51,216 bases of DNA from an uncultured Alphaproteobacteria bacterium (GCA_944390035.1 CALXOP010000113.1:1-51216), one strand, 5' to 3'; numbered from the stretch's first letter, positions 638-41,691 are shown. Notes: a model not told the origin generated them from the letters alone. A program made the numbers and translations.

Positions 638-712
638 TTGGGTAAAGGTTAGAGAAAATAATTTACAAACCTTAACAGCTAAATTAAATTGATTAAAGAA
701 TTAGGAGCTGAT

Positions 713-2634: not shown

Positions 2635-2643
2635 GGATTGATT

Positions 2644-3357: not shown

Positions 3358-3362
3358 TTACT

Positions 3363-3394
3363 AAAAAAAAAGAGGACCAAAGGTCCTCTTTTTT
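3363..3394. terminator. Bidirectional intrinsic terminator between convergent genes
   Basis: An A9 run, then the stem AGAGGACC / GGTCCTCT with loop AAA, then a T-run. It sits between the stop of 2644..3357 (+) and the stop of virB11 (-). Confidence 0.75.
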
Positions 3395-4361: not shown

Positions 4362-4372
4362 CTTCTTACTCC

Positions 4373-12875: not shown

Positions 12876-14512
12876 TGCGTCCTTACTACGCTGCAAAATA
12901 CCCCGTTACGACCTAAGCGACTGCAGACATTGTCGCCGGATTCCAAACTCTTGACTGGCCCAACACGTAAGTGGAACAACTCTTTGCCTTGTCCGTCAGC
13001 CGGGGCATCAACCGAGAAAAACGGCTCATAACGACTTAAGACATCAGGATACTTTTTAGAGAGCTCGCTCCACAAATTCTCCAAATTCGAGACATTGGCG
13101 TCCGTTCCTAATTCGATAGAGATATTGGAACTATCGGCACCGACAAAACCCGAACCAAAGCCATAACCACCTTTTGAACCGGCCTGTCCGCCTACATTGC
13201 CGGCATATTGATTATTATTTTTAATATGCTGCATTTTCGAGTAATCGTAGCCATCGTTAGGCGGTTGGAAACCTATGTTGACCCCATTGCCATTGCCTGA
13301 GTTAGCACCGCTATTGCCGTAGCGCGGTACAACAATTTCGCTTTGTCCGACTTGAATGTCATATTGTCCCGGCATACCGTTGGCTGAAGAATTAAATTCA
13401 CTGTCTCTGCCGGTACCGCCCGTCGGACGCATGGTTCCACCCGGAATTGGTTGCGGAACATCCCATGCAGAATCTTCAAAATCCGTTGCATAAGTGGCAT
13501 TTTCCAATCCGGCATCATCAGAGCGACGCATCTTGAGGCAAACTATTCTCTTGCCGTTGCGCAATACCATATCACCAATTCCTTCAACAACAATCAAGCG
13601 ATTGTTCGGTCCTTTGGTTCTAAATCCGACCGGAACTTCTATTCTTTCAACAATCAAGGTGACAATCGGGCGTTGGGTCATATTGAGCGCCTTTTCACCA
13701 AAATCAATATAAGTGAAAATATCATCCCGCCATACTCTTTCCGGCGCAATCACAACATCATCCGGATTTGGAACATAGACTTCAATATCAAAACGGAATT
13801 TGCTCGGGTCGACTGGAATTTCTTTTATCCAATCACTTCTTTGAAAGCGTTTGGTAAAAAGAGAATCTGCCGAATGGGCATTGTTTGCCTTGTAGGATGA
13901 GGCATTTACACCCGAACCGCCGCCAACACTTCCGCCAGCAATGCCGGCTCCTCTTGAACCTGCCGGACCGTCAATCACATCAATATCAATAATTGAATTG
14001 GTCAAGCGCTCTGTGTTGACACCTTCACTTTTGACATAAAATACATATTTATTCCCTGAACGGCCAAAGATAATAATATTGGTATCGACCCCGACATTTG
14101 CTCCCTTACGCGGATAGAGCAAAATTGTATTCGGACCGGAAATTTGGCCATCAAACGTGGCATTGTCACCAATATACATGTCCTCAATTAGCTCCCACTC
14201 CGGAAAATTGAGCAAAGTTATCATACCTTCACGTAGGCGTATCGGCAAGATTAAATCCGGCGACCAATAATATTTTGAATATGCCGGCTTGCTTTGTCCT
14301 TCGCCCAGATTTTGGAGCGGGTCCAGCCAAGCGGCTTGTGTCATTCCAAGAGAGTTAAAACCGGCATAACCCAGATTCATCGGCATATATTGTCCCTGAC
14401 TTTGGTCGGCATTTTGATCCAAACTTCCCATCGTGGCTTGCGAAAAAGCATTACGGCTGACCATCAGCGTAATTGCTCCGATTAATAAAATTTTGCCAAC
14501 TTTCAAAATCAT
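12872..14512 (-). CDS. virB9: VirB9/CagX-family protein with C-terminal SPOR-like domain (546 aa)
   Basis: Signal peptide. N-terminal domain YYWSPDLILPIRLREGMITLLNFPEWELIEDMYIGD...ILLYPRKGANVGVDTNIIIFGRSGNKYVFYV. C-terminal domain DDIFTYIDFGEKAL...RLIVVEGIGDMVLRNGKRIVCLK. A Gly/Asn-rich linker follows, then ISIELGTDANVSNLENLWSEL...FHLRVGPVKSLESGDNVCSRLGRNGVFCSVV (SPOR-like). Confidence 0.85.
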   Translation of the reverse strand: MILKVGKILLIGAITLMVSRNAFSQATMGSLDQNADQSQGQYMPMNLGYAGFNSLGMTQAAWLDPLQNLGEGQSKPAYSKYYWSPDLILPIRLREGMITLLNFPEWELIEDMYIGDNATFDGQISGPNTILLYPRKGANVGVDTNIIIFGRSGNKYVFYVKSEGVNTERLTNSIIDIDVIDGPAGSRGAGIAGGSVGGGSGVNASSYKANNAHSADSLFTKRFQRSDWIKEIPVDPSKFRFDIEVYVPNPDDVVIAPERVWRDDIFTYIDFGEKALNMTQRPIVTLIVERIEVPVGFRTKGPNNRLIVVEGIGDMVLRNGKRIVCLKMRRSDDAGLENATYATDFEDSAWDVPQPIPGGTMRPTGGTGRDSEFNSSANGMPGQYDIQVGQSEIVVPRYGNSGANSGNGNGVNIGFQPPNDGYDYSKMQHIKNNNQYAGNVGGQAGSKGGYGFGSGFVGADSSNISIELGTDANVSNLENLWSELSKKYPDVLSRYEPFFSVDAPADGQGKELFHLRVGPVKSLESGDNVCSRLGRNGVFCSVVRTQ

Positions 14513-14532: not shown

Positions 14533-15264
14533 CTATTGAACTCTGTTTAGTGTCAATGAATATCTATCAACCGTAAACCCAACCGGATTGTTTAAGCGTT
14601 CGCCGTATTTAACGCTTTTTTGAACATAGCCAACCCGCAAAGAGGCTGTCCAGTAGTTGATTTCCGGCTTGGTCGAATCCGGATACATATCTTGTGTTTC
14701 ATACTCAACTTGCCACAAGCCTCTGCCCAACTCATTAACCGTCAGAATACGAACATTTCGCTGTAAGCTCTTGGTGCGGATAATATCAAGCGCCCTTTTA
14801 GCGGTTTTGTTCAAGAATTCTTGATATACCGCAGGAGAGGACATTTCTTGTATCGGGCCACCCGGCATCCAGCGTGCTTCCATTTCGGGGATATCTCTGT
14901 CAAACGAACTTCTTTGCAGAACATATTCTCTGACAAACACTTCGGTAATTGCCTTTTCATCTGCCAAATTTCCTCTAACCGGAACAATATTGTAAACTTG
15001 TTCCCCTTTGGCCTGAAATGTCAGCAAAAAAGGCTCTATGCGAAACAGCGGCATAACTTGAATAATTGCCAGAAACAAAACAACATTGCAGCATAGGCTA
15101 ATTGCCGTGATGACGGCAAAGGCACGTGCGGTCCAGAGATACCTCTTTTCACCGACATTGGCGACAAAGACATCTTCCGTCGTGCGTGATTTGACAGTTT
15201 GTTGAGGCTGTGCCTGCCGCCCTATAAGGCGTTGCTGTGTATTATTTTCGAGGCGATTATCCAT
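14533..15264 (-). CDS. virB8: VirB8-family protein
   Basis: 243 aa. The N-terminal TM helix is AFAVITAISLCCNVVLFLAII. The periplasmic domain has ..VFVREYVLQRSSFD.. and the C-terminal signature NYWTASLRVGY...NPVGFTVDRY. Confidence 0.85.
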   Translation of the reverse strand: MDNRLENNTQQRLIGRQAQPQQTVKSRTTEDVFVANVGEKRYLWTARAFAVITAISLCCNVVLFLAIIQVMPLFRIEPFLLTFQAKGEQVYNIVPVRGNLADEKAITEVFVREYVLQRSSFDRDIPEMEARWMPGGPIQEMSSPAVYQEFLNKTAKRALDIIRTKSLQRNVRILTVNELGRGLWQVEYETQDMYPDSTKPEINYWTASLRVGYVQKSVKYGERLNNPVGFTVDRYSLTLNRVQ

Positions 15265-15272
15265 TGGTTTTC

Positions 15273-15461
15273 CTAAATTGTTTCAACAAACCAATCGGGA
15301 AGTGTTTTCGGCAACTCGACCTGCATGCAAGCGCAAGGTGATAACTTCAACTCATCAACACCTTTACCGACGCCGACCGGCTCTGCCTCGTAATATGACC
15401 CAAATATGCCGCAAGATGACAGCAGCATTAGAACAAAAAGCATAATTATCTTTTTTGACAT
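15273..15461 (-). CDS. Small lipoprotein, VirB7-like by size and position
   Basis: 62 aa. Signal peptide with lipobox (LLSSC). It lies between two virB8 paralogs, directly upstream of virB8-virB9. I see no sequence signature beyond this. Confidence 0.5.
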   Translation of the reverse strand: MSKKIIMLFVLMLLSSCGIFGSYYEAEPVGVGKGVDELKLSPCACMQVELPKTLPDWFVETI

Positions 15462-15574: not shown

Positions 15575-16333
15575 CTATAATATTTCTACTTCGGCTTGAG
15601 AATAGCGCGTTACCGTAAAACCTATCGGATTTATCAATCTTAAGCCCGTAAATTCTCGTCCGGGGATGAAAAAGGCCGTAACTGAAGCAGTCCAATATTT
15701 TACCGTCATAATGCGAGCACGCGTCTTTTTATCAACCGCGTATTTGGAAAGCTCATAAGTTTTAAAATCGACTTTCCAGACCGGACTGCGCTCACCGCCT
15801 TGCTTACCGATAGAGATAATTTCAACCTCTCTGACCACGCCGTCATGGCGCATTTTTTCCCAAATGCTGTCGCGGTATTGCGAAAACTCGTTATACACCC
15901 TCGGAGCTGATAAAAAGTTCATCATACCGCCGTCATACCAGCGCACCTGCATTTCCTTTTCATCATCAATTATGGTATTGCGCAGAATAACAAATTGCGC
16001 CACAAACATTTCCATTAATTTGTTTTTGGAGGCCATTCGATTGGTGATGGCTTCGGCTCTGACAATGCCATCCGACGTATCTTGATTAATGATTAAAAAC
16101 GGCTCGACCGAAACCTGCGGGGCCAGCCTGAACAAAGCTAACGAAAAGCTCATAAAAACCAAGAGTGAAAGTATGGCAAAAAAGATAAACAAGCGAGACA
16201 GCCACATATAATATTTGAGCTTAAAGCCTTCTTTTTCTTGCTCTGTTTCGCTGATGAACTCGTGCGTTTGACCGTTGGAATCCGTCAATGACAGAACCTT
16301 TGCTCCTTCCAACTGCGGGTTTATGTTGTTCAT
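15575..16333 (-). CDS. virB8: VirB8-family protein, second paralog
   Basis: 252 aa. TM helix LFIFFAILSLLVFMSFSLALF. C-terminal KYWTASVTAFF...INPIGFTVTRY parallels the first paralog. Confidence 0.8.
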   Translation of the reverse strand: MNNINPQLEGAKVLSLTDSNGQTHEFISETEQEKEGFKLKYYMWLSRLFIFFAILSLLVFMSFSLALFRLAPQVSVEPFLIINQDTSDGIVRAEAITNRMASKNKLMEMFVAQFVILRNTIIDDEKEMQVRWYDGGMMNFLSAPRVYNEFSQYRDSIWEKMRHDGVVREVEIISIGKQGGERSPVWKVDFKTYELSKYAVDKKTRARIMTVKYWTASVTAFFIPGREFTGLRLINPIGFTVTRYSQAEVEIL

Positions 16334-16348: not shown

Positions 16349-19300
16349 TTAGTATGCTGCACAGAAAGGTATCGGGAACGAGTTTAGTTGTTTTTCAAAT
16401 TCTTCATCGGCTTTTTTCTTGTATTCCGACGTTACTTGATGGTTTACTTCTTCCGTTTTTATTCTCTCGTCTAATTCCGAACCGGAATCCGTGGTATCGC
16501 TGAGTGAGATATACGCCTCTTTATCTTTGCGCAAAGCAGTAAATATATTCTTAATCTTATCTACTCTTTCTTGAACAACTTCGTTATCCATTACATTTAC
16601 GCTATCCAGCTGTTCCGTGGCTTCATTAATGAGGCTGTTTTTATAGCGATTCAGCGTTTCTTTGGTTAGGTCATAGTCTTCTTGTTTGGCTAAATCATAA
16701 TCCGCACTCGGAACAAAGCCGATTTCTTCAAACTTTTCAAACAGCTCGGCTTTGGCTTCATCTACACTTAATTTCATTTCTTCAAGTGCTTGACGATAGC
16801 TGATTTCTTGCTCAACAAAGGTTAAAAAATTACCGATTTGGTTATGGTCAAGCATAGCTTTTTCATAGACTATATCTTGCATATTTTCCGTATAAGATGA
16901 GCCTTCTTGCTTTTCTTCGGCCATCTTTTCCAAGCGTGCAAATACCGTTTCAGGCGCATCGTTGTAGAACAAGCCGGAATCTGTGGCTTTGAGCAAAGTG
17001 CCAAGTTCACTGTTTGAGCCAGTATTTCCAACCTCTTGAGCAGTTAGTACTTTTGCTGATGCCGTGACCTCTTCTGCTTTGTCTTTGATGGTGACATATC
17101 TTTTCAGCTGTGCCAAGAGCCCTGATGCCCCTTCCAGACTTATTTCTTGGCATTGCGGCAGTTGGCGCCAATTTTCCCACTCGTCAGAAACTTTTGTGCT
17201 ATAAACGCGGAAAGTGCCGTCCGTGTTGGTTAGATCAATGATGTAATTATCCAAAATGCAAGGATAACGTCCGCCGCGCATAAAGTTTGCCGCCTCGTTG
17301 CCTTCGGAAAGCAAGGTTTTTAAATCTATATCTTTATCAACAAAGGCTTTGTTCTTTAATATCAATTTCCAAATTTCGGGGAATTTTCCACCGCTGTTGA
17401 GCAAGCCTTCTTTGCTGACGCCGCCATTGCTGGTTTTGGTGACATTATCGTGGTCAACATCGTCAAAATGAACAACTTCTCTCAGCGGGGGCAAGTATTC
17501 CTGAAGTGAATTCTTAGGCGCCATAAAGTCACGCGCTTTGCCGTAAGAGCCGACAAAATAGTCATCATCGGCTTGCATACAAGCATCATCCACGCAGGCT
17601 TGTTCTATCAGCATTTTTTGGAACATTGAGGTCAGCGGTTTGATAATTGATGCTGTTTTGGCATAGGCCCCGACGGCAGATGAAAAATTCTGCAGACCTT
17701 CAACCGGCAAGTCCTTTAATTTGGTCATTAGGTCTTGGTGCAATTTGACAATCTCATCACCATAGGCACCGATATAGACATCTTCTCCCAAATTCATAAT
17801 TGCGTTTTGAGTATCATCAACCAGTTGAACAGCATAACTCTTGGTATCAGAAGTCAGACCGCTGGCTGTTTGCAAAATTCGTAGCAGGCTAAACGGCGGA
17901 ATTATTCCGTCTGCATCGGCAACCGGAAGTCCGATTTTGTTTTGATAATAAGCAACCAAATCGAGCGTTTCTTTGGCTTTGCGCTTTTCTTCTATATATT
18001 TTTTGGCTTCTTCCAATTTTTGATTATAAGCCTGTTCAATTTGCTGAACTTGAGAAATATAATTCTGTTCTTCGGCAGAAATTTGTTCTTCTACTTGCTC
18101 TAATTGTTTCTTTAAATTAGCCACCTCTTGGTCTTTGCTATCAACCTGAGTTTTTAGACTTGCGGCTAATTCGGTATTTTGTTCAACTTCGGCTTGGTAT
18201 TGATTAATTTCTTCTTTGGCAAGCGACATACCTTCCGTATCTTCCAAATTCAGAACTTCGCTTTCTTTTTCGGTTGAGTCGGTGTAATCTGCCGTTTGTG
18301 CCTCTTGGGTTTCTTCATCTACCTTATCAGTTGTTTCCAACGTGGTATATTCCATCGTAGCTTCTGCCTTAGAATCTAGCTCGGCATCTAATTTGGCCTT
18401 TTCTTGATTATAGTCAAAAGTGTTATACTGTGCGCCAAAATACAGTGTACGGCTGAGTGCATATTTTGAGCCGTTTCCGGGTGCAAAATTACCATTTTCG
18501 CTAAACGGGCGACGGCGGAACAAGGTCTTTTTCTCATTAGCGGCCGGGGCTTCAATCGATGTATCATCTTCCGGATAGAGGCTGACCGAACCGTCCGGAT
18601 TACTGGTAATGTTGTTAGGTTGTAAATTTTGTTTTTCCAAAACTTGTTGCTGTTTTGCCTGATAGTTCAGCTTATTCATCTTATCTTTATATTCGGAGAT
18701 GGCTTCACCGGTGTCAAACAGCATCCTTTGTTCGGTATTTTCTTGGTATTCGGTTGAGTGTACTTCTTTGGTGGTCTCCGGTGTGACCTCATAGGTTTCA
18801 TCAGCATATTCAACACTACTTTGCTTTGTAATGTTATCTTCAATGTCTCCTTGGCGGTCTTCTTGGTCTTGGAGGATTTTTCCTTGAGTATCTACACCGG
18901 CTTGAGCCTTTAATTTATTTTGTTGTGCGGTGTTGAGTTGTTCGGAGTAATCCGCCAGTAAACCGGAGGCTCTGTCTAGCTTGTCTTGCAGGCTTTTTTT
19001 GCGGCTTTCCAGACTTTGGAGGCGTGATTGTTTGCTGTTTAGGGCCTTTTGTAAGAGTTCGTCTTTATTCTTTTCAAGGCTTTCTAAGACAGAGGCCGGA
19101 TCGGAGGCGGCATCTTCTTGTGCCAGACGAGCCGACAAGCTATCCAGTCCGGCGCGATTGTTGGCTCTTTCATCGGCATCTTCGGTCAAGATATCATTAA
19201 GCGGATAGGCTATTTCAACAATAATCGACGTCACATCATATTGTTGCAGATAGTCTTTTATGTTGCCGTATTTACCGCCTATATATTGATTATAAAAACT

Positions 19301-20962
19301 GATTTGGTCATTCCATATCGGGAATTTTTTAGTCGGCGTTCCCCATTGCGGTGTGGTTTTGTGTTGGTCTTCTACCAAAAGCTGGGCGGCTTCGGCTCCA
19401 ATGTTAAAGGAAATCATTTGTGATTCACGCGTGGATTGCTCTATTTCTTCGGTTTTGCTGGCGTCGGTTAAGCCATTATTGCCTTTTGACTCCAGTTCCT
19501 TTTGAATAGATTGAAAACCATTGGCATCGTCAATATCAACATCCGTATCAATCTCGATGGTGCCCAAATCTTCAGGCTCCATGGGTGTGCTTTCTTCGGA
19601 TTTGGCTAACTCAAATGCTTTAATTGCCCAGCCGGACAGGCCTTGGCGCGCATCATAATCATTAACGGCGGCATCGGGCATTGTGCCTTTCCAAACGGTT
19701 TGCGGCGTTGAATAGTATCGCCCCAAATACTGCATAACACATTGGTCTGACGAATTGACGGCATCTATGGCTTTTTGGTGCAATTTTTGATATTGTTGAT
19801 AGCTCTTGAAAATTTCCTGATAGCTGTCCAGTGCTTGCATTAGATTATGGACATCCAATGCTGACTGCGCTTTTTCATAAATCGGTTCAATTTTATCTAA
19901 CTCTTGAATCTTTTCTTCATTACCGGCAAAAGGCGAATCGATATTGGGTTTGTTGGCTTCGCCAAAAGTGACATTGCCGTAAAGAGAGGGATTATAGACA
20001 TATTCTTCGTCATCTTCTTGTGTGGCCGTATTGGCTGAGGCTTGCGATGATTGGAGATTAAAATCGGCTTGCGTGATAAAACCTAATTGACCAAACATTA
20101 ATGTTTCACGGTGCGAAATAACACCTGATGAGGCCAATTTGACCGGCTCTTGAGTGAGGTTAAATGAGGTTTGCTCTTGAGCTGCCTTTTCTTTGGCTTC
20201 TCTTTCTGATTTGCTGACATAGGCTGCCGGCGTAATTTGGTTATGCAACAGAATTGCCGCCTCATATTGCAGTTTCATTGCCAAAGCTTCTTGCGTGATT
20301 TTCAAGATGCTGTCCATGGTCTCATAGGCATTGAAGGCATTTTTCCAAGCACCGTTTTCATCATCACCGCTTTCGGCGCCGTCTGCTCCCGTACTACCGC
20401 CGGCAAAAGTGGTTGAGAGTTTGTCAACCTCGGCGGTTAGGGTTTCCAGCTCTTCTTCCAACTTGCGGGAAGATGTATAAATTTCAATAACCGTATCTTC
20501 ATAAAACTCTTGTGCCTTTGCCTCATAAGCCTGACATTGCTCATATTCATCGGCACCTTTATTGCAATCAACCGGATAGGCTAAAAATAACTCATACAAG
20601 GCTTGTTTAACCGAATCGGCATCATAAATATCGGCAATTTTGGTTTCTTCGATTGTTTTGGCACCGGGCATGTCCTTTTTTTCTTTCTTTTGGAACAAGC
20701 CATTCATAAAGCCCGTAAACTTAGACATATATTCCTTTTTTGCGGCTTTTACGGCTGCCGTGGCATTGTTGGCATAAGTCTGAAGTTGAGCTGCAACGCC
20801 TTGTGCTGCTGCTGCAACATTTTGTGTGGTTCCGGCCACATCCGTCGGAGCATCGGCCGTCGGCGTAAACGGCCCCGGAGGTAACAAAAAGCCATAAGAA
20901 GAGATTGCCGACCCCACAATCAGCAAAGAAGAAAGAGCAATTATTTTGAAGAGTTTCAACAT
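16349..20962 (-). CDS. Giant secreted acidic coiled-coil protein (1537 aa), unknown function, at the position where VirB6/TrbL is normally encoded
   Basis: N-terminal signal peptide (IIALSSLLIVGSAISSYG). I see no further hydrophobic helix anywhere in the protein. There are long heptad-like Glu/Lys/Gln stretches. It sits tightly packed between the 458-aa gene and virB8. Confidence 0.7.
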   Translation of the reverse strand: MLKLFKIIALSSLLIVGSAISSYGFLLPPGPFTPTADAPTDVAGTTQNVAAAAQGVAAQLQTYANNATAAVKAAKKEYMSKFTGFMNGLFQKKEKKDMPGAKTIEETKIADIYDADSVKQALYELFLAYPVDCNKGADEYEQCQAYEAKAQEFYEDTVIEIYTSSRKLEEELETLTAEVDKLSTTFAGGSTGADGAESGDDENGAWKNAFNAYETMDSILKITQEALAMKLQYEAAILLHNQITPAAYVSKSEREAKEKAAQEQTSFNLTQEPVKLASSGVISHRETLMFGQLGFITQADFNLQSSQASANTATQEDDEEYVYNPSLYGNVTFGEANKPNIDSPFAGNEEKIQELDKIEPIYEKAQSALDVHNLMQALDSYQEIFKSYQQYQKLHQKAIDAVNSSDQCVMQYLGRYYSTPQTVWKGTMPDAAVNDYDARQGLSGWAIKAFELAKSEESTPMEPEDLGTIEIDTDVDIDDANGFQSIQKELESKGNNGLTDASKTEEIEQSTRESQMISFNIGAEAAQLLVEDQHKTTPQWGTPTKKFPIWNDQISFYNQYIGGKYGNIKDYLQQYDVTSIIVEIAYPLNDILTEDADERANNRAGLDSLSARLAQEDAASDPASVLESLEKNKDELLQKALNSKQSRLQSLESRKKSLQDKLDRASGLLADYSEQLNTAQQNKLKAQAGVDTQGKILQDQEDRQGDIEDNITKQSSVEYADETYEVTPETTKEVHSTEYQENTEQRMLFDTGEAISEYKDKMNKLNYQAKQQQVLEKQNLQPNNITSNPDGSVSLYPEDDTSIEAPAANEKKTLFRRRPFSENGNFAPGNGSKYALSRTLYFGAQYNTFDYNQEKAKLDAELDSKAEATMEYTTLETTDKVDEETQEAQTADYTDSTEKESEVLNLEDTEGMSLAKEEINQYQAEVEQNTELAASLKTQVDSKDQEVANLKKQLEQVEEQISAEEQNYISQVQQIEQAYNQKLEEAKKYIEEKRKAKETLDLVAYYQNKIGLPVADADGIIPPFSLLRILQTASGLTSDTKSYAVQLVDDTQNAIMNLGEDVYIGAYGDEIVKLHQDLMTKLKDLPVEGLQNFSSAVGAYAKTASIIKPLTSMFQKMLIEQACVDDACMQADDDYFVGSYGKARDFMAPKNSLQEYLPPLREVVHFDDVDHDNVTKTSNGGVSKEGLLNSGGKFPEIWKLILKNKAFVDKDIDLKTLLSEGNEAANFMRGGRYPCILDNYIIDLTNTDGTFRVYSTKVSDEWENWRQLPQCQEISLEGASGLLAQLKRYVTIKDKAEEVTASAKVLTAQEVGNTGSNSELGTLLKATDSGLFYNDAPETVFARLEKMAEEKQEGSSYTENMQDIVYEKAMLDHNQIGNFLTFVEQEISYRQALEEMKLSVDEAKAELFEKFEEIGFVPSADYDLAKQEDYDLTKETLNRYKNSLINEATEQLDSVNVMDNEVVQERVDKIKNIFTALRKDKEAYISLSDTTDSGSELDERIKTEEVNHQVTSEYKKKADEEFEKQLNSFPIPFCAAY

Positions 20963-20975
20963 TCTTTTTCTCCTT

Positions 20976-22352
20976 TTAGAGGCCTATTCCCAGGCTATCT
21001 GTTGCCGACTTAGCGGCAGACAAACCATCTTGTGCCGTACTTAGTCCGGATTTTGCGGCGCTTAAGCCAGATTTAGCTTTGCTAGCTAAATTGCTCAAAT
21101 TATCTTTACTGAAAAAGCTCGGTTTTTCATATTTATAGTCATCCAGATTAAACTGGGTTACATCTTTGTTTGGATTATTGAGTTTTCCGACTTTAATGCT
21201 GGCCAGGTCAGATGAACTTTTCATTTTCATCTCTTGGACCAATAATTTCGTATAATCCAAAAGGGCTTGCATATTTTGAACCTTTAATTGCGTATCAAGC
21301 ACAATTGCCGAACTTGAGCCTTCCATCATTGGAACATTTGAGGCCGTATCATCTGCTTTTTCACTATTGTCTCCTCTTTCGGCGCGCATTTTTAATGCTA
21401 ACGAGTAAGCACGTAAAATATCGGCCGTTTTGGTCTTTTGGCGATAATCTTCAACTTTTTTCAGATTTTCGGTGGTAAGTTGTTCTTTTTCCGGCACAAA
21501 GTTATTGGCAATGGTTTTGTTGAGAGCCTCTGCAGATTCATTTTTATCTCCAAACAGCGATTTAGCCGCGCTCAGGCCGTCTTTGGCCAGGCTCAAACTT
21601 TCTTGGGCGGCATCTTCTTGCAGGGTTTGAATTTGTTTATCAATATTGGCAACTTGCGCTTGATAAGCAGCCTGCTCTTTTTCTTCATTTGCTTCATATT
21701 CGGCTTGGAGCTTCTTTATTGCTTCATTATTGGCGGCGATTTTATCTTCCAAGGCCTCTTTTTGTGAGGGGTCTTGGGCTATCTGTTGTTGATAGACCGC
21801 ATTATTGTCTTGGTAGGATTTGACTTGTCCCTCATATTCGGTTTTGCGGGTTTCGGCCGCAGTGTTATACTCGGATTCAAGTGAACTCTTTTCATTTTTA
21901 AGGCTAAGTAATTGTTGTGCCGATTGCGTTTTTCCGGCTACGGACGAAGCCGTGGAAAGTGCTCCGCCGGCGACGTTGCCGACTGTTCCCGAGGCCGCAT
22001 TTGTTACATCGCCCACCGTACTGTTTACCTCACTTGTTATATCTCCAACAGTTGAGGTTACCGTGTTTTTGGCATCATTGATGGCGTTTTTGGTTTGATT
22101 AATACCTTCTTTGACGGCATCGGCTTGCTCTTTGAGCCATTTGGCGGTCTCAATTGCCCCTTTACCATAAGCTATCATGGTTTGAATTGTGGTGGATTCA
22201 TTAATGAGGGTTTGCGCTTGCTCTGCCCAACCACTTACCGTTCCTTGCACCTTATTAGCGGTGTTGGTTATATCAAATTTTATTCCGGCTTGGCTCGGAA
22301 GGCTAACTATTATCCCTAAGAGGCAACCCATAACAAAAACTATTTTTCTCAT
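20976..22352 (-). CDS. Secreted helical protein (458 aa), possible VirB5/TrbJ-like
   Basis: Signal peptide (..IVSLPSQAG). After the signal peptide comes IKFDITNTANKVQ, then long helical Ala/Gln/Glu sequence. Short repeats: TSEVNSTVGDVT / NAASGTVGNV and a C-terminal SGLSAAKSGLSTAQDGLSAAKSA. Its ATG overlaps the upstream TGA (ATGA at 22349-22352). Confidence 0.65.
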   Translation of the reverse strand: MRKIVFVMGCLLGIIVSLPSQAGIKFDITNTANKVQGTVSGWAEQAQTLINESTTIQTMIAYGKGAIETAKWLKEQADAVKEGINQTKNAINDAKNTVTSTVGDITSEVNSTVGDVTNAASGTVGNVAGGALSTASSVAGKTQSAQQLLSLKNEKSSLESEYNTAAETRKTEYEGQVKSYQDNNAVYQQQIAQDPSQKEALEDKIAANNEAIKKLQAEYEANEEKEQAAYQAQVANIDKQIQTLQEDAAQESLSLAKDGLSAAKSLFGDKNESAEALNKTIANNFVPEKEQLTTENLKKVEDYRQKTKTADILRAYSLALKMRAERGDNSEKADDTASNVPMMEGSSSAIVLDTQLKVQNMQALLDYTKLLVQEMKMKSSSDLASIKVGKLNNPNKDVTQFNLDDYKYEKPSFFSKDNLSNLASKAKSGLSAAKSGLSTAQDGLSAAKSATDSLGIGL

Positions 22353-23134
22353 GAGTCCTCCTCGGCATAAGTAAATTGTCTTGCCTGTTGAGTTGCATTA
22401 TATTCAAAAAGCATCGTGTTCATCAACATTATTTTGCGAAATCGTTTAGCCATCTCCATTGATTTGGCTTTGGTGCTTTGAATAATATCGCGGGTATTTT
22501 CCTTGTCTGTTTCTTCGGCTTCTTCTTTGGCCAGGTTTGCTCTGTCACTAAAAGCGACGGCATATAAGTTGGCAAAATTAGCACGTTGAATTTCGCTCAT
22601 TTTTTCTTCTTGTGCATTATAAATTTCGACCAAATCCGTTGTTTCTGAACTATCTGCATTATCAGCAGTTGATTGATTGCCCGAAGATGATGAGGTGCTT
22701 GTGTTGGATTTTGGGCGTTGCATTAAATAGTTTTTTTGAACTGCTGAGCTGAGTGCTTTGGCATCATTTAAATCTACCTTGGTGGCAAAACCCGGCATTG
22801 AGCTACCCAAAGTCTGGAGTGAACCTTCAGGATCATTGGCAAAATTTTGCACCGCATTTACCTTATCTGTCACGGCACTTATGTTATTGCTAATATCATT
22901 TTTAACCGAATTTACGGTATTGACAGCACTTTTGACCGTGCCCATAGCACCTTCGGCTGCAGAACGTATATCTTGCTGAATTTCGTTCAAATCTTGTTGA
23001 ATAGAGCGCGCTTCTTCCAAACCGGTTTTTATCGGACCTAAAACAGTTCCTTGTATGGCTTCAATATCCGCATAAGATATTTGCGGCCAAAATAGGCTAA
23101 GCGCCAGCAGAAAATATATTAACTGCTTTTTCAT
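22349..23134 (-). CDS. Secreted helical protein (261 aa), VirB5/TrbJ-like by size, signal peptide and position
   Basis: Signal peptide ending ISYA. It then reads DIEAIQGTVLGPIKTGLEEARSIQQDLNEIQQDI and is helical throughout. Its ATG overlaps the upstream TGA (23131-23134). The family assignment is an inference. Confidence 0.6.
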   Translation of the reverse strand: MKKQLIYFLLALSLFWPQISYADIEAIQGTVLGPIKTGLEEARSIQQDLNEIQQDIRSAAEGAMGTVKSAVNTVNSVKNDISNNISAVTDKVNAVQNFANDPEGSLQTLGSSMPGFATKVDLNDAKALSSAVQKNYLMQRPKSNTSTSSSSGNQSTADNADSSETTDLVEIYNAQEEKMSEIQRANFANLYAVAFSDRANLAKEEAEETDKENTRDIIQSTKAKSMEMAKRFRKIMLMNTMLFEYNATQQARQFTYAEEDS

Positions 23135-25362
23135 TCGCTTTCTCCGGTTTCACCAAGGCTCTCTGTCGTTAATCCGCCTAATTGCCCCAGCGCGGTTTGC
23201 GACAGCTGTGCGGCCTGCATTGTGATTAACTTATTAAGCAAAGTTTGGATTTCTTTATTGGTCTGCGCCAGTACTGCGCTATCGTCACGCGTGGTTGAGG
23301 CACTCCCTGCTTGCTCATCAAATGTATTTAAAACTTGGTCTTCATAATTGGCGGCTATATTCTTCATTTGCATACTTTCCGTAACCGTCGCAATTACATT
23401 TTCAGCCCCAATTTGAGTGATTTTGCTCTTACCTTCCGCCGCAACTTGACTATCTGAATCCGACTGATGGCGAATGAGTTTTTTCAGGCATTCTTCCATG
23501 AGGGTCGGATCTTCTAGTTTATCGACACCTATGTTACAATACTCAACCAAAGATGCCGGAATAATGGTTTCCTCATATTCACCATTGTTGATTACGCCAT
23601 CGGGAATATATTCTTCACTTTCGGCACCAAACATTAAGGTTTCCGAAGATTTATAAGTGGCAATTTTAACTGTTTTTGCAATATCCAAACTTGCTCCCTT
23701 ATCTAAAGTGAGGTTGTTTTTGATAATGGCTCTTTGACGGAAACTCTTAGAGGTATTTGCACGTGTGGTCGGCGCCGATATTGCCTTTTGCACCGAAGAA
23801 GTTGAGGTGCTTAGTGCTTTGACAGGCGCGCTTTGCAATACCTTATCCGTTGAGATTGACTTATTTTCAAGGCTCTTTGTTGACAAGGTTGATGTTGCAT
23901 TGGCTGAGGATGTGGCTTGTGTTGACACTGCCGGCTTAATTTGTGCGCTTGGTGTCGCTGTCGTCAGCGTTGATTTAGCAACCGGTGTAGATTGCACGCT
24001 CTCCGAGGTGGTTGTTTGTGACGTTTTGCCGCTTAGGGCTTTGTTTTGCCTAAAGGGACGACGGAAACTTTTGTTTGATTGAGCTTTTTGAGCTGTAGCG
24101 GCTTGAGTTGTATCTGTCGCGCTGACAGCGTCTGCTTCAGTCGCTGCTGAAGTTAAGGCTTGCGCGCCTTCTGCCGGTGCTTGAGCGACAGGGGCATTTT
24201 CCACTGTCGCAGATTGTGCTGGTGCTGTTGCTTCTTCGGCCATTGGTTGAGCTGTTCCTTCTGTCGTATTGTTAGACATAGAGCTATTTTTCTGCATATC
24301 ATTTGTCTTTGCGGTAGTTTGTGCTTTATTTTGTCTTAAAGCTTTGTTTTGCCTAAAGGGACGACGGAAACTTTTGTTTGATTGAGCTTTTTGAGCTGTA
24401 GCGGCTTGAGTTGTATCTGTTGCGCTGACAGCGTCTGCTTCAGTCGCTGCTGAAGTTAAGGCTTGCGCGCCTTCTGCCGGTGCTTGAGCGGCAGGGGCAT
24501 TTTCCACTGTCGCAGATTGTGTTGGTGCTGTTGCTTCTTCGGCCATTGGTTGAGCTGTTTCTTCTGCCGATTGGACAGCGGTCGTTGCTTCTTCGGCTAT
24601 CTGGTTTTGACTTGATTGCAAAGTAGCATTTTCATCTGCCGGTATGGTTTGCGGCACAGTTTCACCTGACATTACAGACTGTGTATTATCGTATATCTTA
24701 GCATCGGAGTTAATTCCGGCCTCATAAGCGGCAACATAGTCATCAACAAATGTATCTTGCGTATTGGGGGTTGAAGTCGTGTTGCCAGTGGCTTGGTTAA
24801 CATCAGAGCGGACATCGTTTACCTTATTTTGGACGGATGATACCTTCTCTTTAGCCAAATCTTTGGCGTCGTTTATGGTCCCTTTAGCCTCATTTACCGT
24901 TGCTTTGGCTTCTTCAACCTTTGATTTTGCTTCGTTTACTGTTGATTTTGCTTCTGCGACTTTTTCTTTAGCTTCTGCTATTTTTTTCTGCGCCTTTTCA
25001 TATTCTTCTTTGGCCTTTTGCGCTTTCTCTCTTGCTTCATCAATTTTGGCTTTGTTTTCTTCCAAACGCTTTTTGGCTTTTTCTAGCTTTTTGGCTTGTT
25101 CTTGAACTTTTTTCAGATTATCGCCGGCAAATTTTGACATTGATGATTTTGCATCACCAATGGTACTGTTCATTTTGCCGGCAAGCTGCGTGGTTTCTGT
25201 TACGATTTTTGATTGTTTGACCAGCTCTATTTTGGATGATATGCCTTCTTTGATAGCGGCAATATCCAGCGTCGGCCATTGGGCTTGGGCACTTGAGGTT
25301 ATGGTCATAGCGATTGCTATCCCTAAAAGGGATATTCTCTTTTTGTGCTGCATTATCTTCAT
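23131..25362 (-). CDS. Secreted repeat protein (~743 aa): VirB5-like N-terminus, Lys/Glu/Ala coiled coil, duplicated Ala/Thr/Gln-rich block
   Basis: The listed start 25386 is GTG. GGAGG lies 5 nt upstream of the ATG at 25362 (MKIMQHKKRISLLGIAIAMTITSSAQA). The mature protein starts QWPTLDIAAIKEGI... It follows virB4 directly. Confidence 0.7.
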   Translation of the reverse strand: MKIMQHKKRISLLGIAIAMTITSSAQAQWPTLDIAAIKEGISSKIELVKQSKIVTETTQLAGKMNSTIGDAKSSMSKFAGDNLKKVQEQAKKLEKAKKRLEENKAKIDEAREKAQKAKEEYEKAQKKIAEAKEKVAEAKSTVNEAKSKVEEAKATVNEAKGTINDAKDLAKEKVSSVQNKVNDVRSDVNQATGNTTSTPNTQDTFVDDYVAAYEAGINSDAKIYDNTQSVMSGETVPQTIPADENATLQSSQNQIAEEATTAVQSAEETAQPMAEEATAPTQSATVENAPAAQAPAEGAQALTSAATEADAVSATDTTQAATAQKAQSNKSFRRPFRQNKALRQNKAQTTAKTNDMQKNSSMSNNTTEGTAQPMAEEATAPAQSATVENAPVAQAPAEGAQALTSAATEADAVSATDTTQAATAQKAQSNKSFRRPFRQNKALSGKTSQTTTSESVQSTPVAKSTLTTATPSAQIKPAVSTQATSSANATSTLSTKSLENKSISTDKVLQSAPVKALSTSTSSVQKAISAPTTRANTSKSFRQRAIIKNNLTLDKGASLDIAKTVKIATYKSSETLMFGAESEEYIPDGVINNGEYEETIIPASLVEYCNIGVDKLEDPTLMEECLKKLIRHQSDSDSQVAAEGKSKITQIGAENVIATVTESMQMKNIAANYEDQVLNTFDEQAGSASTTRDDSAVLAQTNKEIQTLLNKLITMQAAQLSQTALGQLGGLTTESLGETGESE
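24038..24561 (-). repeat. Near-identical direct duplication (~220 bp copies, 303-bp period) inside the 751-aa gene
   Basis: GCTTTGTTTTGCCTAAAGGGACGACGGAAAC... starts at 24038 and again at 24341. Over about 220 bp only a few substitutions are visible. The encoded block is ..TAQPMAEEATAP.QSATVENAP.AQAPAEGAQALTSAATEADAVSATDTTQAATAQKAQSNKSFRRPFRQNKAL. Confidence 0.9.
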
Positions 25363-25442: not shown

Positions 25443-27875
25443 TTACGCAATATTTAAATATTTTGTAACAAAGTTTTCTTCGCCATATTCCTTTATTAGC
25501 TCTTCTACCAACAAAACGTTCTTGCGGCCTGAGTTGTAGAGTTTCAAATATGGCCCTAAACCACTCAAATCTACATCCAAAATAACCGATTCACCCGTGG
25601 CCGGACGAGAAAGCAATATGGCATAAGGAAAATCGCGGTAGGTTTTACCAAAGATAAAATCGACCTCACGCTGGGTTAAATTCCAGTTGGCATAATCTTC
25701 CGGCATGGCTTGCGGGTTACGGAAGAAAATTACCGTTTGGCATTGACCGCGAATAACCTCGCCGACCCCTAATTTATCGATAATATTGGGTTGTTGGAAG
25801 GCGCATAAGTAAGCCTGACGTTTTTTACGGCCTTCTTGAAGACCGATAATAAAGTAATCTCTAAACATCGGGTGCTTTAACATCGGCGCCGTTTCATCAA
25901 TCATAATTAAGGACGGAACACCCGTGTCTCCGGTTTCGGACATAATTCGGTGCATAATATAGCTGATAACGGCCGGAGCCAAAGTTTCATCTTCAAAAAT
26001 ATGAGTAAAGTCAAATGCCATAAATCTTTTGCTGGCCAAGTCCAAGCTATCGTTTTCGGCATTGAAAATATTACCGTATTGATCGGGGTTGACCCAACGA
26101 AACAGTTCACGACGCATATTACCGGTCGGTGAAAAACAGCTCTTATAAAGATTTTTTAAAATCCGTTCCTCAGGTTTCAAATAGTCAAACGCCGTGGTGA
26201 CCGCGCGACCTATCTCTTTTTCGGACAAAGCATCATCAACCATGGTAATGGATTTGAGCCATCTTCTTAAAAAGGCACGGTTATTGGGCGTATTTTTGCA
26301 GTCAAACGGGTTGAGGGACACGTTCTTTTCATCGCCGTCAAAACCGACATATGCCCCTTGTATGGCGCGGGTGAAGATTTCTGCACCGCGGTGACGGTCA
26401 AAGAAGAATACCTTCAAATCATGGTGACGCATGGCTTGTCCGGCCAAAAATGTCAGCAAAGTGGTTTTACCTTGTCCGGTCGGACCAATAATACAACAGT
26501 GCGCAACGGCTGAATCTTCAGTTGAAACATGGAATTGAAAACGGTAAGCCGAGCCGGAGGTCGTCCGGAAAATGGAAATTGCGCCCGGACCCCAGTCACT
26601 TTTGGGCAAGCCTTCGGAAGGCTTATCAAAAGATATGGCCATGGCAACCACTCTTGATAAGTAGCGATAGGTTCTGGGATAAGCATCATAAGTCGGAAAT
26701 TGGTTGAAAAAGGCCGCTTGAGCCACCCAACCTTCTCGAACCGGCGTTACACTGAACAAACGACAAATTCTTTGAACTTCACTCTCTCCGAAATTGATTT
26801 CTTCCATGCTGTCGCCACGGAGAATAATATCCATTGCATATTCGGTCAGAGATTGATAATCGGCATCACTATCTTCAATTGCGGAGAGTGCCTCGGAATA
26901 TTGGCTGACAACATCGGGTGAAAAGCTCGTTACCGTTGCCATACGTTGTTGTTGCATTAATAATGCACGTGCCTGAGGTTTAAACATCGGTTTAATGTTG
27001 TGCAACAGTGTTAATTCGCAATCAATAGACAAGAGTGAGGCTATCATGCTCTCATCCATATAGTCGCCGGAGGTGCGAATGCCCATGACAATCTCATAGA
27101 GTTCTTTGTCGCCGGAGAAAAATTTGATAATGCCGTTTTCGCCGGTAAAATGAATATGGTCCGCAGTCAAGAGCTCATTGAGTTGATAACCGGTCGCCTC
27201 TCTGACTTTCGGCAGCGGTTTAGAAACCGGACTACAAATTTTGGAAAAGACATACAGCGGACTGTCCGTTGCCGCGCTGTCTTCCGTCTCAAACATAGGC
27301 TTAACACCATAGTCATTTAAGGTTGCCAAGAGTGATTGTGAGGCATAGTTTAGGTCTTTTAGCGCATCGGGACGGTCGGCAACCGACAAAATGATATAGT
27401 GTTTATTGCTATAAACCCTATCCAGATTATTGCGCCAGGTCATCGAAATTTGTTCCAGCAGTTGGTTACCGAAATCTCCACTGTCTTCTTCCATCGGAAT
27501 ACGTTCACGCAATGTCAAAACTCGGCAAATAATCTGCATATCCGACATCGAATCTATCCATGACTTGCGCGCTTCCATCATGGCCATATTCTTTTCTTCG
27601 GTCACAAAAGATAAATCTACCCCTTCAACCCGGAAAACACGCGCAAAAGAGCCATTATAGCAACGGATGGTGATGCCGTCTGCCATTAACTTATTGAAAG
27701 GCAAAAAGTCAACCACGCGGGACTCTTGCGGTTGCGGCAAGATGATGCGACCTAATTTGGTCGCCCATAATCCGGCAAAGGCCGCTGCAGACACAAATCC
27801 AATAGCGGCAACAATTACTTCTATGTTGGACAATCCTTGAACAAAGATTGTGAAAAAATCAAAATCAGGGCGCAA
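25443..27875 (-). CDS. virB4: Type IV secretion ATPase VirB4/TrbE
   Basis: 810 aa. Walker A IIGPTGQGKTTLLTFL. Walker B-like SLIMIDETAPML. The typical C-terminal ..QCQTVIFFRNPQA.. is present. The apparent TTG start overlaps the end of virB3. Confidence 0.9.
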   Translation of the reverse strand: MRPDFDFFTIFVQGLSNIEVIVAAIGFVSAAAFAGLWATKLGRIILPQPQESRVVDFLPFNKLMADGITIRCYNGSFARVFRVEGVDLSFVTEEKNMAMMEARKSWIDSMSDMQIICRVLTLRERIPMEEDSGDFGNQLLEQISMTWRNNLDRVYSNKHYIILSVADRPDALKDLNYASQSLLATLNDYGVKPMFETEDSAATDSPLYVFSKICSPVSKPLPKVREATGYQLNELLTADHIHFTGENGIIKFFSGDKELYEIVMGIRTSGDYMDESMIASLLSIDCELTLLHNIKPMFKPQARALLMQQQRMATVTSFSPDVVSQYSEALSAIEDSDADYQSLTEYAMDIILRGDSMEEINFGESEVQRICRLFSVTPVREGWVAQAAFFNQFPTYDAYPRTYRYLSRVVAMAISFDKPSEGLPKSDWGPGAISIFRTTSGSAYRFQFHVSTEDSAVAHCCIIGPTGQGKTTLLTFLAGQAMRHHDLKVFFFDRHRGAEIFTRAIQGAYVGFDGDEKNVSLNPFDCKNTPNNRAFLRRWLKSITMVDDALSEKEIGRAVTTAFDYLKPEERILKNLYKSCFSPTGNMRRELFRWVNPDQYGNIFNAENDSLDLASKRFMAFDFTHIFEDETLAPAVISYIMHRIMSETGDTGVPSLIMIDETAPMLKHPMFRDYFIIGLQEGRKKRQAYLCAFQQPNIIDKLGVGEVIRGQCQTVIFFRNPQAMPEDYANWNLTQREVDFIFGKTYRDFPYAILLSRPATGESVILDVDLSGLGPYLKLYNSGRKNVLLVEELIKEYGEENFVTKYLNIA

Positions 27876-31300: not shown

Positions 31301-31734
31301 AGCTGGTACGAAGATGAACTTGCTGCACTGTTAGAATTATTTGCGGCTGGAGTTGAGGATGTCGCCGGGGTTGAGGATGCCGCCGGAGTTGCACTACTTT
31401 CATTAACTGTTACTTTAGGGCCACTATTTTTCTTTTGTTCATATTCTTTCTTCTGTTTTTCCGCATATTGCTTTAATGCTACAGTTTGATCTGCCGCATT
31501 ATTCAACTGCTCTACCAAGGCATTGGCTTCTTCTTCCGAACAATTAGGGTCTGCATCACAATCTGCTAATTTTTGTGACAACTTATCCCATTCTTGGTTG
31601 TATTGCCCTGCCATTGCATTGGTTATATCATAATTTCTTACAATCTGAGCATAAACGTCTGACGATTGCATCAAAACACAAACAGACACGATTAACAGGC
31701 TTATGCTTTTCAATAGATTAGATATGTACTTCAT
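28348..31734 (-). CDS. Giant protein (1128 aa) with an internal VirB2/TrbC-like hydrophobic hairpin flanked by ~450-aa and ~560-aa hydrophilic arms
   Basis: Signal peptide (..QSSDVYAQ). At nt ~30150-30355, IAYIISGFGMIALAYAAIFGKMSFKHLANIGIGLFLLSMMTPFIEYF aligns with ILGGFGLVGIAYSAILGKVKWSWFAGLAVGLAILAAAGSIVEY (32248..32586) and AVSGFGVVAIAVGAFFGTMNWKWLVAIIIGLFVIASTAGIINY (31759..32208). The N-arm is a Lys/Glu/Ala/Gln coiled coil. The C-arm is Gly/Ala/Thr-rich and ends in a Cys-rich tail. GGGAGG SD sequence upstream. Confidence 0.75.
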   Translation of the reverse strand: MKYISNLLKSISLLIVSVCVLMQSSDVYAQIVRNYDITNAMAGQYNQEWDKLSQKLADCDADPNCSEEEANALVEQLNNAADQTVALKQYAEKQKKEYEQKKNSGPKVTVNESSATPAASSTPATSSTPAANNSNSAASSSSYQLAQIDMSQVIEEEAPEEEAVGGWQTLDKETQNTIAKNQARYNATGGNEAAQEIYDAQQNRINQQQNTQAVRDNNVAEIQKKLAEQKAQNNERVANMQAQTNIARQDYTAAQEKLKNATTPEEMKAANEALKAAKENLEKAEDAQKDVEKDVKKANKELDKTAEKQIDAMDDAVKEQQKALEKEQKEQKKAIEKEQKQAEKDLKKANKEIEKLEEKCAKGKCDDDDLADLAAARASASSAQSALDNANQKAAAFNAEDEDVAAQEYMDERDAEIAAEAAQENALAEAASADQELADAKKDIASAQSAAPKMCSEAEGNIFLLIACKAMITLADLRVIAYIISGFGMIALAYAAIFGKMSFKHLANIGIGLFLLSMMTPFIEYFTTGKDGTLRFGKYLPAGFTDIQGSDGQVYNCGAGGSGEGAAKAADGSYLCPEVTVTGIDQSYKKEKWSLKDLKGSIQAGISAVRNASDMYKAAKTTVTNVANTVSNMKAQIKAGGGGLDGIINAAGAVANATGSIVSSGQTLANNIATNAGELSSNIKDAGSTNAAREAVAKVQEKTDALQKKCDAGNCSDVEKEQLEVNKEFLESEKTGVNKWLENDGAGGGATILSGINKVGNITSNAAKSVNTAATAAKEGQSIGGDGALGAILGVGFGVGTAVTEGVNTVSQGQKNGAFDFRSEETKREEKAQAEQEAFQKTAGYVKSETKSGDTTIQNLGDGSIKTINESTGTTTVISTDGTTTITGKDGSTIVKNKDGSKVVTDADGNKITYDSKGNKVSTELVNKYNRPTAESMTNALKGTKTEEKPTEEKPAEEKDEKESKKQAEEKTQTISEEQKNTLKQQCSRYTGDYIALKSKCEACVGKSTIAEINSCIQAIDTEAKEINQCNDAKFKQTCFDTGEPKEACAKCNYEKRAQEKATAEAAAEITDQQRNARCQTQCQGAKRKEQCLSDCKALLANAKTKAEVNQKMTEFPKGKDFYNKYNK

Positions 31735-34865: not shown

Positions 34866-34934
34866 CGCCTTGGTAATAAGTTGCGCCTGACGCTTGATTA
34901 TTTATTTTTCAATATGTATGATAGGTAAAAAAAT

Positions 34935-37236: not shown

Positions 37237-37248
37237 GGAATTATTACA

Positions 37249-40012: not shown

Positions 40013-40019
40013 GTTTTAA

Positions 40020-41681: not shown

Positions 41682-41691
41682 GAGTTGACTT

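Follow-up and report, generated by a model that had tools for sequence, protein, structure and literature searches.

Four secreted proteins in the virB5-virB7 slot

A stretch of 51,216 nucleotides from an uncultured Alphaproteobacteria bacterium (GCA_944390035.1, CALXOP010000113.1:1-51216; this whole stretch is referred to as the window) was found to carry the gene set of a VirB-type type IV secretion system (T4SS), arranged as one long minus-strand run from position ~32586 down to 3393. Directly downstream of virB4 in this run lie four consecutive open reading frames (designated ORFs A to D; Table 1), whose relationship to VirB5 and VirB6 is the subject of this analysis. An earlier note on this DNA, made from the sequence alone, had described four ORFs of 743, 261, 458 and 1537 amino acids (aa) at this place, and both sizes and coordinates were reproduced. 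The likeliest start of ORF A, which begins 78 nt past the VirB4 stop codon, is the ATG at 25365/25362 behind GGAGG (an upstream GTG would give a protein of 751 aa), and ORF D is followed downstream by two VirB8 genes.

A VirB4 relative was identified by tblastn (E <= 1e-3) in 277 species-representative genomes, and the best 80 of these 277, with VirB4 proteins 80-97% identical to that of the window, were used as comparison loci (the "about 80 species" or "relatives" mentioned below). Gene order was alike in these loci, with ORFs A to D filling the canonical virB5-virB7 slot, and the four-gene order A-B-C-D was kept in most of them. Given this synteny, and gene-wide ratios of nonsynonymous to synonymous substitution rates (dN/dS) of 0.05-0.17, ORFs A to D are real genes.

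Each of the four proteins was found on inspection to begin with a signal peptide (basic n-region, hydrophobic core and AxA-like site), a layout which is kept in the orthologues; cleavage is predicted between AQA and QWPTLD in A, SYA and DIEAIQ in B, SQA and GIKFD in C, and SYG and FLLPP in D. No further transmembrane helix was seen in Kyte-Doolittle scans of A to D, in which the N-terminus alone showed a hydrophobic segment, in agreement with the earlier note. VirB6/TrbL proteins are polytopic, with five or more hydrophobic helices, and ORFs A to D possess only the segment belonging to the signal peptide. The proposal that the ORFs are joined by ATGA overlaps held for A/B and B/C, while C/D and D/virB8 are separated by spacers of 13-15 nt with their own ribosome-binding site. 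Similarly, the description of the proteins as coiled coils was borne out for aa ~85-200 of A, aa ~100-270 of C and the middle of D, and not for the remaining parts. A home-made heptad scorer for coiled coils also flagged VirB4 and VirB8 and, being non-discriminating, was left unused.

The N-terminus of ORF A resembles that of VirB5

On the grounds of gene position, export signal and profile comparison, ORF A is concluded to be a relative of VirB5 in at least its N-terminal ~40 residues. The motif following the alanine at its cleavage site, Q-W/I-P-T/V-x-D, can be generalised as phi-P-(T/V)-x-D, and in nearly all lineages the first ORF after virB4 has a mature start of this type (QWPTLD, LIPTVD, MIPVID, LGIPVLD, LIPVTD). 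This mature start is shared by TrwJ (QGIPVFD) and other plasmid VirB5 proteins; the A-type starts LGIPVLDTSSFVQ and LIPVTDPGTLAQ are comparable to GGIPVIDVSSLTQQ and GGIPVFDAAGLAQ of VirB5. The pattern matched 42 of 55 A orthologues. Among 558 further ORFs with a length of 150 aa or more it had 20 matches: 17 ORFs which were first after virB4, two in the C position and one true background match, a background of about 1 in 540.

The N-termini of 28 A-type proteins were compared with 11 plasmid VirB5 proteins using hhalign. With signal peptides included, the two profiles matched at 95.5% (E 1.6e-8) over 56 columns; with signal peptides removed, the match was 85% (P 6e-6) and placed mature residues 1-42 on 1-42 in exact register. 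The mature-only score of 37.3 was reached by 0 of 100 column shuffles (maximum 20.4), and the reversed template scored 14.9. ORF C gave a weak match to VirB5, also in register (score 16.6, shuffle maximum 13.3), and the N-terminal module of ORF D a weak one of about 50% with the signal peptide included, while ORF B gave no signal, its score of 11 being equal to the shuffle median of 11. The resemblance to VirB5 which had been suggested for the mature N-termini is therefore clear in A, weak in C and D, and absent in B.

A tblastn search of plasmids with the ORF A N-terminus gave no match. A VirB5 hidden Markov model (HMM) searched against 2152 ORFs of the loci gave only matches of E >= 0.01, mostly within the virB4-virB8 interval. 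VirB5 ancestry could not be recognised at the sequence level in the remaining parts of ORFs A to D.

Domain organisation of ORFs A to D

In the family alignment, the signal peptide of ORF A is followed by ~170 conserved aa, in which a helix precedes a K/E-rich coiled coil, by a middle part (aa ~200-560) that is hypervariable, rich in A/T/S/Q/P, of low complexity and low in conservation and occupancy, and by a conserved C-terminal ~175 aa holding two conserved cysteines. The hypervariable region contains a 257-nt direct duplication, which is recent, and each copy ends in SFRRPF. The ETLMFG motif is present in both A and D (Table 1); the family consensus is AS....E-T-L-x-F-A-Q, with conserved and internal positions. 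The motif was also seen in one B orthologue (L006), and the motifs SFRRPF and LFRRRPF recur in the variable regions of both A and D.

ORF B consists of a short helical N-terminal part after the signal peptide and a conserved C-terminal domain with the pattern QRENxAxLYAxA..R.NLAKE..NTR, which is weakly similar to the C-terminal domain of ORF A (hhalign 47%); a homologue search with ORF B returned 16-23 close relatives only. ORF C, with the mature N-terminus GIKFD (phi-P-K-phi-D in its orthologues), is related to ORF A in its N-terminal region (hhalign 82-96%).

ORF D has large conserved globular domains. Its N-terminal module exists as a separate gene of ~225 aa, with a mature start of FFDPGSLTTQV after an alanine, in one subclade (L020/22/27/28/31/33/50/65/66), and this free-standing gene matches aa 70-248 of ORF D at 99.9% (hhalign); the N-terminus of ORF D, which opens with a motif similar to that of ORF A, reads ..PTAD, or FFDPGSLTTQV where the module is a free gene. 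A conserved domain at aa ~320-680 precedes the coiled coil, which is interrupted by a hypervariable insertion (Table 1), and a further ~500 aa are conserved at the C-terminus. The AlphaFold2 (AF2) model of the C-terminal 508 aa, built from 70 sequences, has a mean predicted local distance difference test score (pLDDT) of 90.1 and a predicted template modelling score of 0.77. An exhaustive phmmer search gave 211 representative homologues of this domain, all proteins of 1200-1850 aa with the domain at the extreme C-terminus, and the domain family is therefore limited to D orthologues. Foldseek returned no neighbour for the model, the best match being of E 0.5 in PDB (template modelling score <= 0.13) and E 1.3 in BFVD, which indicates that the domain differs from a VirB5 bundle and that no known relative of it can be detected.

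The earlier note had grouped the four proteins as an expanded VirB5-like family. As ORF C is related to A N-terminally, and the D module occurs as a free gene of VirB5 size, this term is reasonable for the N-terminal modules of A, C and D (with lower confidence for C and D); it does not extend to ORF B or to the rest of the proteins.

Rates of evolution

Gene-wide dN/dS was 0.09-0.17 for A, 0.08-0.14 for B, 0.05-0.09 for C and 0.05-0.07 for D, compared to about 0.01 for VirB4 and 0.02-0.03 for VirB8, all of these ratios being rough since dS is saturated. ORFs A to D are under purifying selection and evolve 5-15 times faster than VirB4: their amino-acid identity to relatives is 20-60% (VirB4, 81-97%), falling to 20-40% in species where VirB4 is more than 80% identical.

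VirB6-like proteins are encoded outside the window

No VirB6-like ORF was found in the 51-kb window, and an ORF with at least three hydrophobic segments was found downstream of virB4 in 0 of the 80 related loci. It had been proposed that VirB6 is either encoded elsewhere or replaced. The first alternative was supported by a metagenome contig (L128) which is 100% identical to window positions 117-12634 (12.5 kb), carries the window's 420-aa protein and reaches 8.6 kb further left; two TrbL/VirB6-like polytopic genes of the same strain lie 3.8-8.6 kb beyond the left end of the window, contradicting replacement. The genes of this extension lie on the strand converging on virB11. The 1247-aa fusion protein encoded there (Table 1) has 5 hydrophobic segments and scores 24.4 bits against PF04610 (E 2.8e-5), just below the cutoff of 25.9, and it matches TrbL proteins of the clade with BLASTP E values of 3e-31 to 1e-19, some of those TrbL proteins exceeding the Pfam cutoff. 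A related locus (L118), in which the adjoining regulator is 84% identical, has three TrbL paralogues in the same set. From the L128 genes and the L118 paralogues it is concluded that VirB6 is not replaced, and is encoded elsewhere as a paralogue series. The M23/VgrG3/TrbL fusion may stand in for the missing VirB1, acting as a combined VirB1/VirB6.

A minority of relatives (L101, L107) have a different arrangement, in which the type IVb pilus cluster is followed by a TrbL-like gene, xerD, aroK, (mtnN), ROK and then VirB2 to VirB4. The TrbL-like protein of these relatives (650-780 aa, 5-6 hydrophobic segments, up to 28.8 bits against PF04610 with its cutoff of 25.9) is encoded 3-5 kb upstream of the T4SS operon. 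The TrbL-xerD-aroK-ROK block is absent from the window and its closest relatives, where the pilus cluster lies directly beside the VirB2-like gene; the TrbL gene beside the pilus cluster was rejected as the window's VirB6 on account of this difference in arrangement. A locus with three TrbL paralogues and flagellar neighbours (L104) was also rejected, as it belongs to another organism.

Remaining genes of the locus

The features of the locus are listed in Table 1. The three VirB2-type genes are consecutive. In the 1128-aa protein encoded by the third, an internal VirB2-like two-helix hairpin (aa 459-525) is surrounded by coiled coils and regions rich in Gly/Ala/Thr, and the ends are rich in Cys; counterparts of this protein among the relatives range from about 120 to 2058 aa. 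The 62-aa ORF between the VirB8 paralogues has the lipobox LLSSC, was called as a gene in every contig seen and is a candidate VirB7-like lipoprotein. The SPOR domain of the VirB9/CagX homologue is of a peptidoglycan-binding type, the 1314-aa beta-flower protein has a single, N-terminal transmembrane segment, and the 1541-aa protein, with its TrbI/VirB10 domain at the end, is reminiscent of CagY, the oversized, repeat-rich VirB10 of the Cag system.

Table 1. Features of the T4SS locus (positions in the window unless a contig is named)
Feature	Position	Strand	Description or basis
VirB2-like ORF, 112 aa	32248-32586	-	First gene of T4SS set
VirB2/TrbC	31759-32208	-	PF04956
Secreted 1128-aa protein	28348-31734	-	Contains VirB2-like hairpin; BLASTP E 3e-10 to adjoining VirB2
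VirB3-like ORF, 96 aa	Between 1128-aa protein and VirB4	-	Position sole basis
VirB4 ATPase	25443-27875	-	Anchor gene upstream of ORFs A-D; PF03135 E 2e-11; TrwK E 1e-39
ORF A, 743 aa	23131-25362	-	Signal peptide, VirB5-like N-terminal helix region, coiled coil, variable low-complexity region, conserved C-terminal domain
ORF A, mature residues 1-42 (aa 27-68)	25159-25284	-	Starts QWPTLD; aligns with mature VirB5/TrwJ N-terminus
ORF A, direct repeat of 257 nt	24010-24569	-	Two copies, 94% identical, spacing 303 nt; in hypervariable region
ORF A, C-terminal conserved domain, aa 567-743	23134-23664	-	Preceded by ETLMFG
ORF A, ETLMFG motif	23626-23643	-	
ORF B, 261 aa	22349-23134	-	Signal peptide, predicted all-helical, conserved C-terminal domain
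ORF C, 458 aa	20976-22352	-	Signal peptide, A-related N-terminal region, central coiled coil
ORF D, 1537 aa	16349-20962	-	Multi-domain secreted giant
ORF D, N-terminal module, aa 1-250	20213-20962	-	Signal peptide, then FLLPPGPFTPTAD
ORF D, ETLMFG motif	20090-20107	-	
ORF D, hypervariable insertion, aa ~700-900	18263-18865	-	In coiled-coil middle; few orthologues (occupancy 0.12-0.35)
ORF D, C-terminal 508 aa	16352-17875	-	Helical bundle, central alpha/beta domain, four long helices (predicted)
VirB8 paralogue 1	15575-16333	-	Directly downstream of ORF D; PF04335
62-aa ORF with lipobox	15273-15461	-	Between VirB8 paralogues
VirB8 paralogue 2	14533-15264	-	PF04335
VirB9/CagX	12872-14512	-	C-terminal SPOR domain
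Beta-flower repeat protein, 1314 aa	8952-12896	-	PF21785/PF21784/DUF3659
Beta-flower + TrbI/VirB10 protein, 1541 aa	4373-8998	-	PF21785/PF21784/DUF3659
VirB11	3393-4361	-	Last gene of set
TrbL-like gene	L128		C-terminal 346 aa of a 635-aa protein; at least 4 hydrophobic segments, Gly/Ala-rich tail; BLASTP E 8e-14 to clade TrbL
1247-aa fusion	L128		Peptidase_M23 (E 2e-15), VgrG3-type C-terminal peptidoglycan-hydrolase domain (E 4.5e-14) and TrbL/VirB6-like domain
Double helix-turn-helix regulator, 323 aa	L128 extension, next to TrbL set (L128 1-5944)		

A type IVb pilus cluster (32925-44473, plus strand), comprising genes for TcpQ, a secretin, PilO, T2SSE, T2SSF, a bundlin/PilS-like pilin and a second ATPase, is divergent from the T4SS operon. 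This adjacency is kept across most of the clade, and elsewhere the same cluster abuts a TrbL-like gene. The pilus cluster is adjoined by a trio encoding a VWA protein, a PP2C phosphatase and a Ser/Thr kinase (45739-48627, plus strand). To the right of the window end, an integrase/resolvase/ankyrin-repeat island is present in one strain (L131 14857-20780) and housekeeping genes in another.

At the other end of the window, four conserved ORFs of 165, 228, 420 and 239 aa (140-3357, plus strand) converge on virB11; they have no Pfam match and may be further T4SS accessory genes. At its N-terminus, the 420-aa ORF has a hydrophobic segment that ends in Cys. The start annotated for the 165-aa ORF (140) lies in a tandem repeat of 93 bp (54-330, plus strand; three copies, 93% matches), and the copy number of this repeat in L128 appears different.

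Comparison with characterised systems

ORF A was compared with the VirB5 family (TrwJ of R388, TraC of pKM101, VirB5 of Agrobacterium), whose members are minor pilin/stalk-tip proteins. In the R388 system a VirB5 pentamer is mounted on a VirB6 pentamer with its N-terminal part projecting like a pore former, and VirB5 ends at the pilus tip (PMC9259494). ORF A shares with this family a gene position after virB4, a Sec signal peptide, a helical character and a mature phi-P-(V/T)-x-D start followed by a helix, with about 40 residues in register. VirB5 proteins are, however, of about 220 aa, built as a three-helix bundle with a small globular appendage, whereas ORF A, at 743 aa, also contains a coiled coil and a disordered repeat region, ends in an unrelated domain, and is followed by three secreted proteins where virB6 and virB7 would be expected.

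The Trw system of Bartonella, likewise a VirB-type system of an alphaproteobacterium, lacks a coupling protein and has a role in host-specific adhesion; its trwL (VirB2) and trwJ (VirB5) genes, the latter together with trwI (VirB6), have been amplified, and their diversification is much more rapid than that of the core (PMC2883598). The present locus carries this pattern further: it has three VirB2-type genes, VirB5-like modules in A, C and D (proteins of 458-1537 aa) and two or more VirB6 paralogues, and no VirD4 was detected nearby. In contrast to the Trw copies, which are recent tandem duplicates of normal-sized genes, its paralogues are ancient, very divergent, 261-1537 aa in length and fused to extra domains, and its VirB6 paralogues form a separate convergent set.

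CagH, CagI and CagL of the Helicobacter Cag system are encoded by consecutive genes of one operon, have a short motif in common and cooperate in forming the pilus, CagL being a divergent VirB5 analogue (PMC3164655). ORFs A to D likewise are secreted, system-specific proteins from consecutive operon genes with a shared motif, but no sequence similarity to the Cag proteins was detected, and the Cag motif is a C-terminal hexapeptide while ETLxFAQ is internal and occurs in A and D.

The rvh system of Rickettsiales lacks virB5, has duplicated virB4, virB8 and virB9 and a series of large VirB6 paralogues, and is encoded in more than one gene cluster (PMC2653234). It resembles the present system as an alphaproteobacterial, chromosomal VirB-type system with duplicated virB8, VirB6 paralogues and split gene clusters. 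Here, however, there is a VirB5-like gene, in expanded form, virB4 and virB9 each occur once, and the VirB6 paralogues lie outside the virB4-virB8 interval; agreement with the rvh type is confined to the virB8 duplication and the VirB6 paralogues, and the system was not assigned to it. In the searchable literature, no paper was found on a T4SS in gut Alphaproteobacteria of the RF32/CAG-239 type.

The components concerned (VirB5, VirB6, VirB2) are of known kinds. The architecture is new: VirB5 is elongated, a giant protein combines a VirB5-like N-terminus and a C-terminal domain without structural neighbours, and the VirB6 paralogues, with hydrolase fusions among them, form a convergent set of their own.

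Interpretation

ORFs A to D are, on balance, probably a distal tip or adhesin module built on a VirB5 scaffold; the T4SS to which they belong is chromosomal, of VirB type but atypical, and is found in uncultured Alphaproteobacteria of the gut. The four proteins would be exported by the Sec pathway to a periplasm- or surface-facing location, as a stalk tip, pilus tip or adhesin. ORF A would be the VirB5 orthologue of the system: it would have retained its place after virB4, its signal peptide and an N-terminal helix segment of VirB5 type, and would owe its greater length to a coiled coil, a C-terminal domain and, between them, a hypervariable repeat region. B and C would be its smaller paralogous partners, the former with the C-terminal domain of A and the latter with its N-terminal region, and D would join another VirB5-like module, at its N-terminus, to a coiled-coil stalk and a C-terminal domain of novel type, this last domain being the strongest candidate for a head that binds the target. 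The TrbL/VirB6 paralogues just outside the window would supply the polytopic base, and amplified, diversified surface parts (VirB2, VirB5-like and VirB6) would be carried on a conserved core, as in Bartonella Trw. This explanation is favoured because VirB2, VirB5-derived modules and VirB6 are all multiplied, these parts evolve fast, and no VirD4 or relaxase was detected nearby; from it we infer that A to D assemble on VirB6, are located at the tip and act in adhesion.

Several results weigh against this explanation. The likeness of ORF A to VirB5 spans about 40 residues, with the remainder of the protein unmatched; A to D did not match PF07996, the NCBIfam VirB5/TrbJ models or solved VirB5 sequences at E <= 1 to 10, and searches of Pfam, NCBIfam and PDB sequences with single sequences and profiles gave generic coiled-coil matches only. 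When an HMM of the A N-terminus was searched against all R388 ORFs, TrwJ was not top-ranked. The VirB5-type helical bundle, which the earlier note had named as the structure to be looked for, was shown for none of the four proteins, of which ORF B and the C-terminus of ORF D were modelled: the AF2 model of ORF B (20 sequences; predicted all-helical) has a pLDDT of 40 and is unusable, and the D C-terminal model has no VirB5-like neighbour, nor any adhesin-like one among the Foldseek results for PDB and BFVD. The substitution rates do not demonstrate positive selection, with gene-wide dN/dS far below 1 and saturated dS. In a weak test, neither VirD4 nor a relaxase was detected in the window or the flanks of relatives, the VirD4 search being limited to tblastn with R388 TrwB in the window and about 10-kb flanks.

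A more specific form of the tip/adhesin explanation, considered unlikely as it stands, is that VirB5 and VirB6 have co-expanded in this clade: at least two or three VirB6 paralogues, one of them fused to peptidoglycan hydrolases, would form a heteromeric base, and the modules of A, C and D a heteromeric tip on which the D C-terminal domain, with its novel fold, would be presented as a variable head for receptor binding. In cooperation with the R64/Tcp-like type IVb pilus encoded next to it, such a machine would be a contact or adhesion organelle and not a conjugation or effector channel.

Among the alternatives, it is rather unlikely that A to D are structural subunits, specific to this lineage, of a periplasmic machine that has been enlarged (compare CagM/Cag3/CagT and the DotF/DotG partners), with the N-terminus of A a mere docking peptide. 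Such a role would agree with the other oversized core parts (the 1541-aa VirB10, the 1314-aa beta-flower protein and the VirB9-SPOR protein), with co-transcription of the four genes in the middle of the core operon and ATGA coupling of A/B and B/C, with the overall purifying selection, and with the lack of an adhesin fold in the Foldseek search of the D C-terminal model. It does not sit well with the much faster evolution of A to D relative to core subunits, with hypervariable, repeat-bearing low-complexity regions that are atypical of buried subunits, or with a VirB5-type N-terminus conserved in register. Pertussis toxin, released by Ptl, is the model for another explanation, namely that A to D are Sec-exported substrates whose assembly takes place in the periplasm and whose release through the outer membrane requires no coupling protein. 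The signal peptides on all four, the location of the genes inside a secretion operon and the failure to detect VirD4 or a relaxase in the window or the flanks of relatives fit this, yet it is distinctly improbable in view of the VirB5-like N-terminus and gene position of ORF A, the lack of a toxin or enzyme domain in any of A to D, and strict one-to-one synteny with the machine over about 80 species. Replacement of VirB6 by A to D, in a system without a polytopic inner-membrane stalk base, was suggested by the lack of a polytopic protein between virB4 and virB8 in the window and 80 relatives; it is contradicted, and is given almost no credence, as two TrbL/VirB6-like proteins are encoded by the same strain 3.8-8.6 kb left of the window, relatives encode a TrbL-like gene 3-5 kb upstream or (in L118-type loci) three paralogues, and A to D themselves have no membrane segment.

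Significance

This T4SS is conserved across uncultured Alphaproteobacteria of the human, poultry, ruminant and mouse gut, in at least 277 species-level genomes. The locus indicates that the VirB5 slot can drift so far that only an N-terminal segment of ~40 residues is kept, and this segment provides a practical marker for hidden VirB5 homologues. The C-terminal domain of ORF D is, as modelled, a confidently predicted fold without a known relative. With VirB2, VirB5-like and VirB6 parts all multiplied, as in Bartonella Trw, the system is a natural case in which hypotheses on tip/base pairing and target recognition become testable. If the co-expanded stalk proposed above is correct, the machine would serve common gut commensals of humans and animals as an organelle of contact or adhesion.

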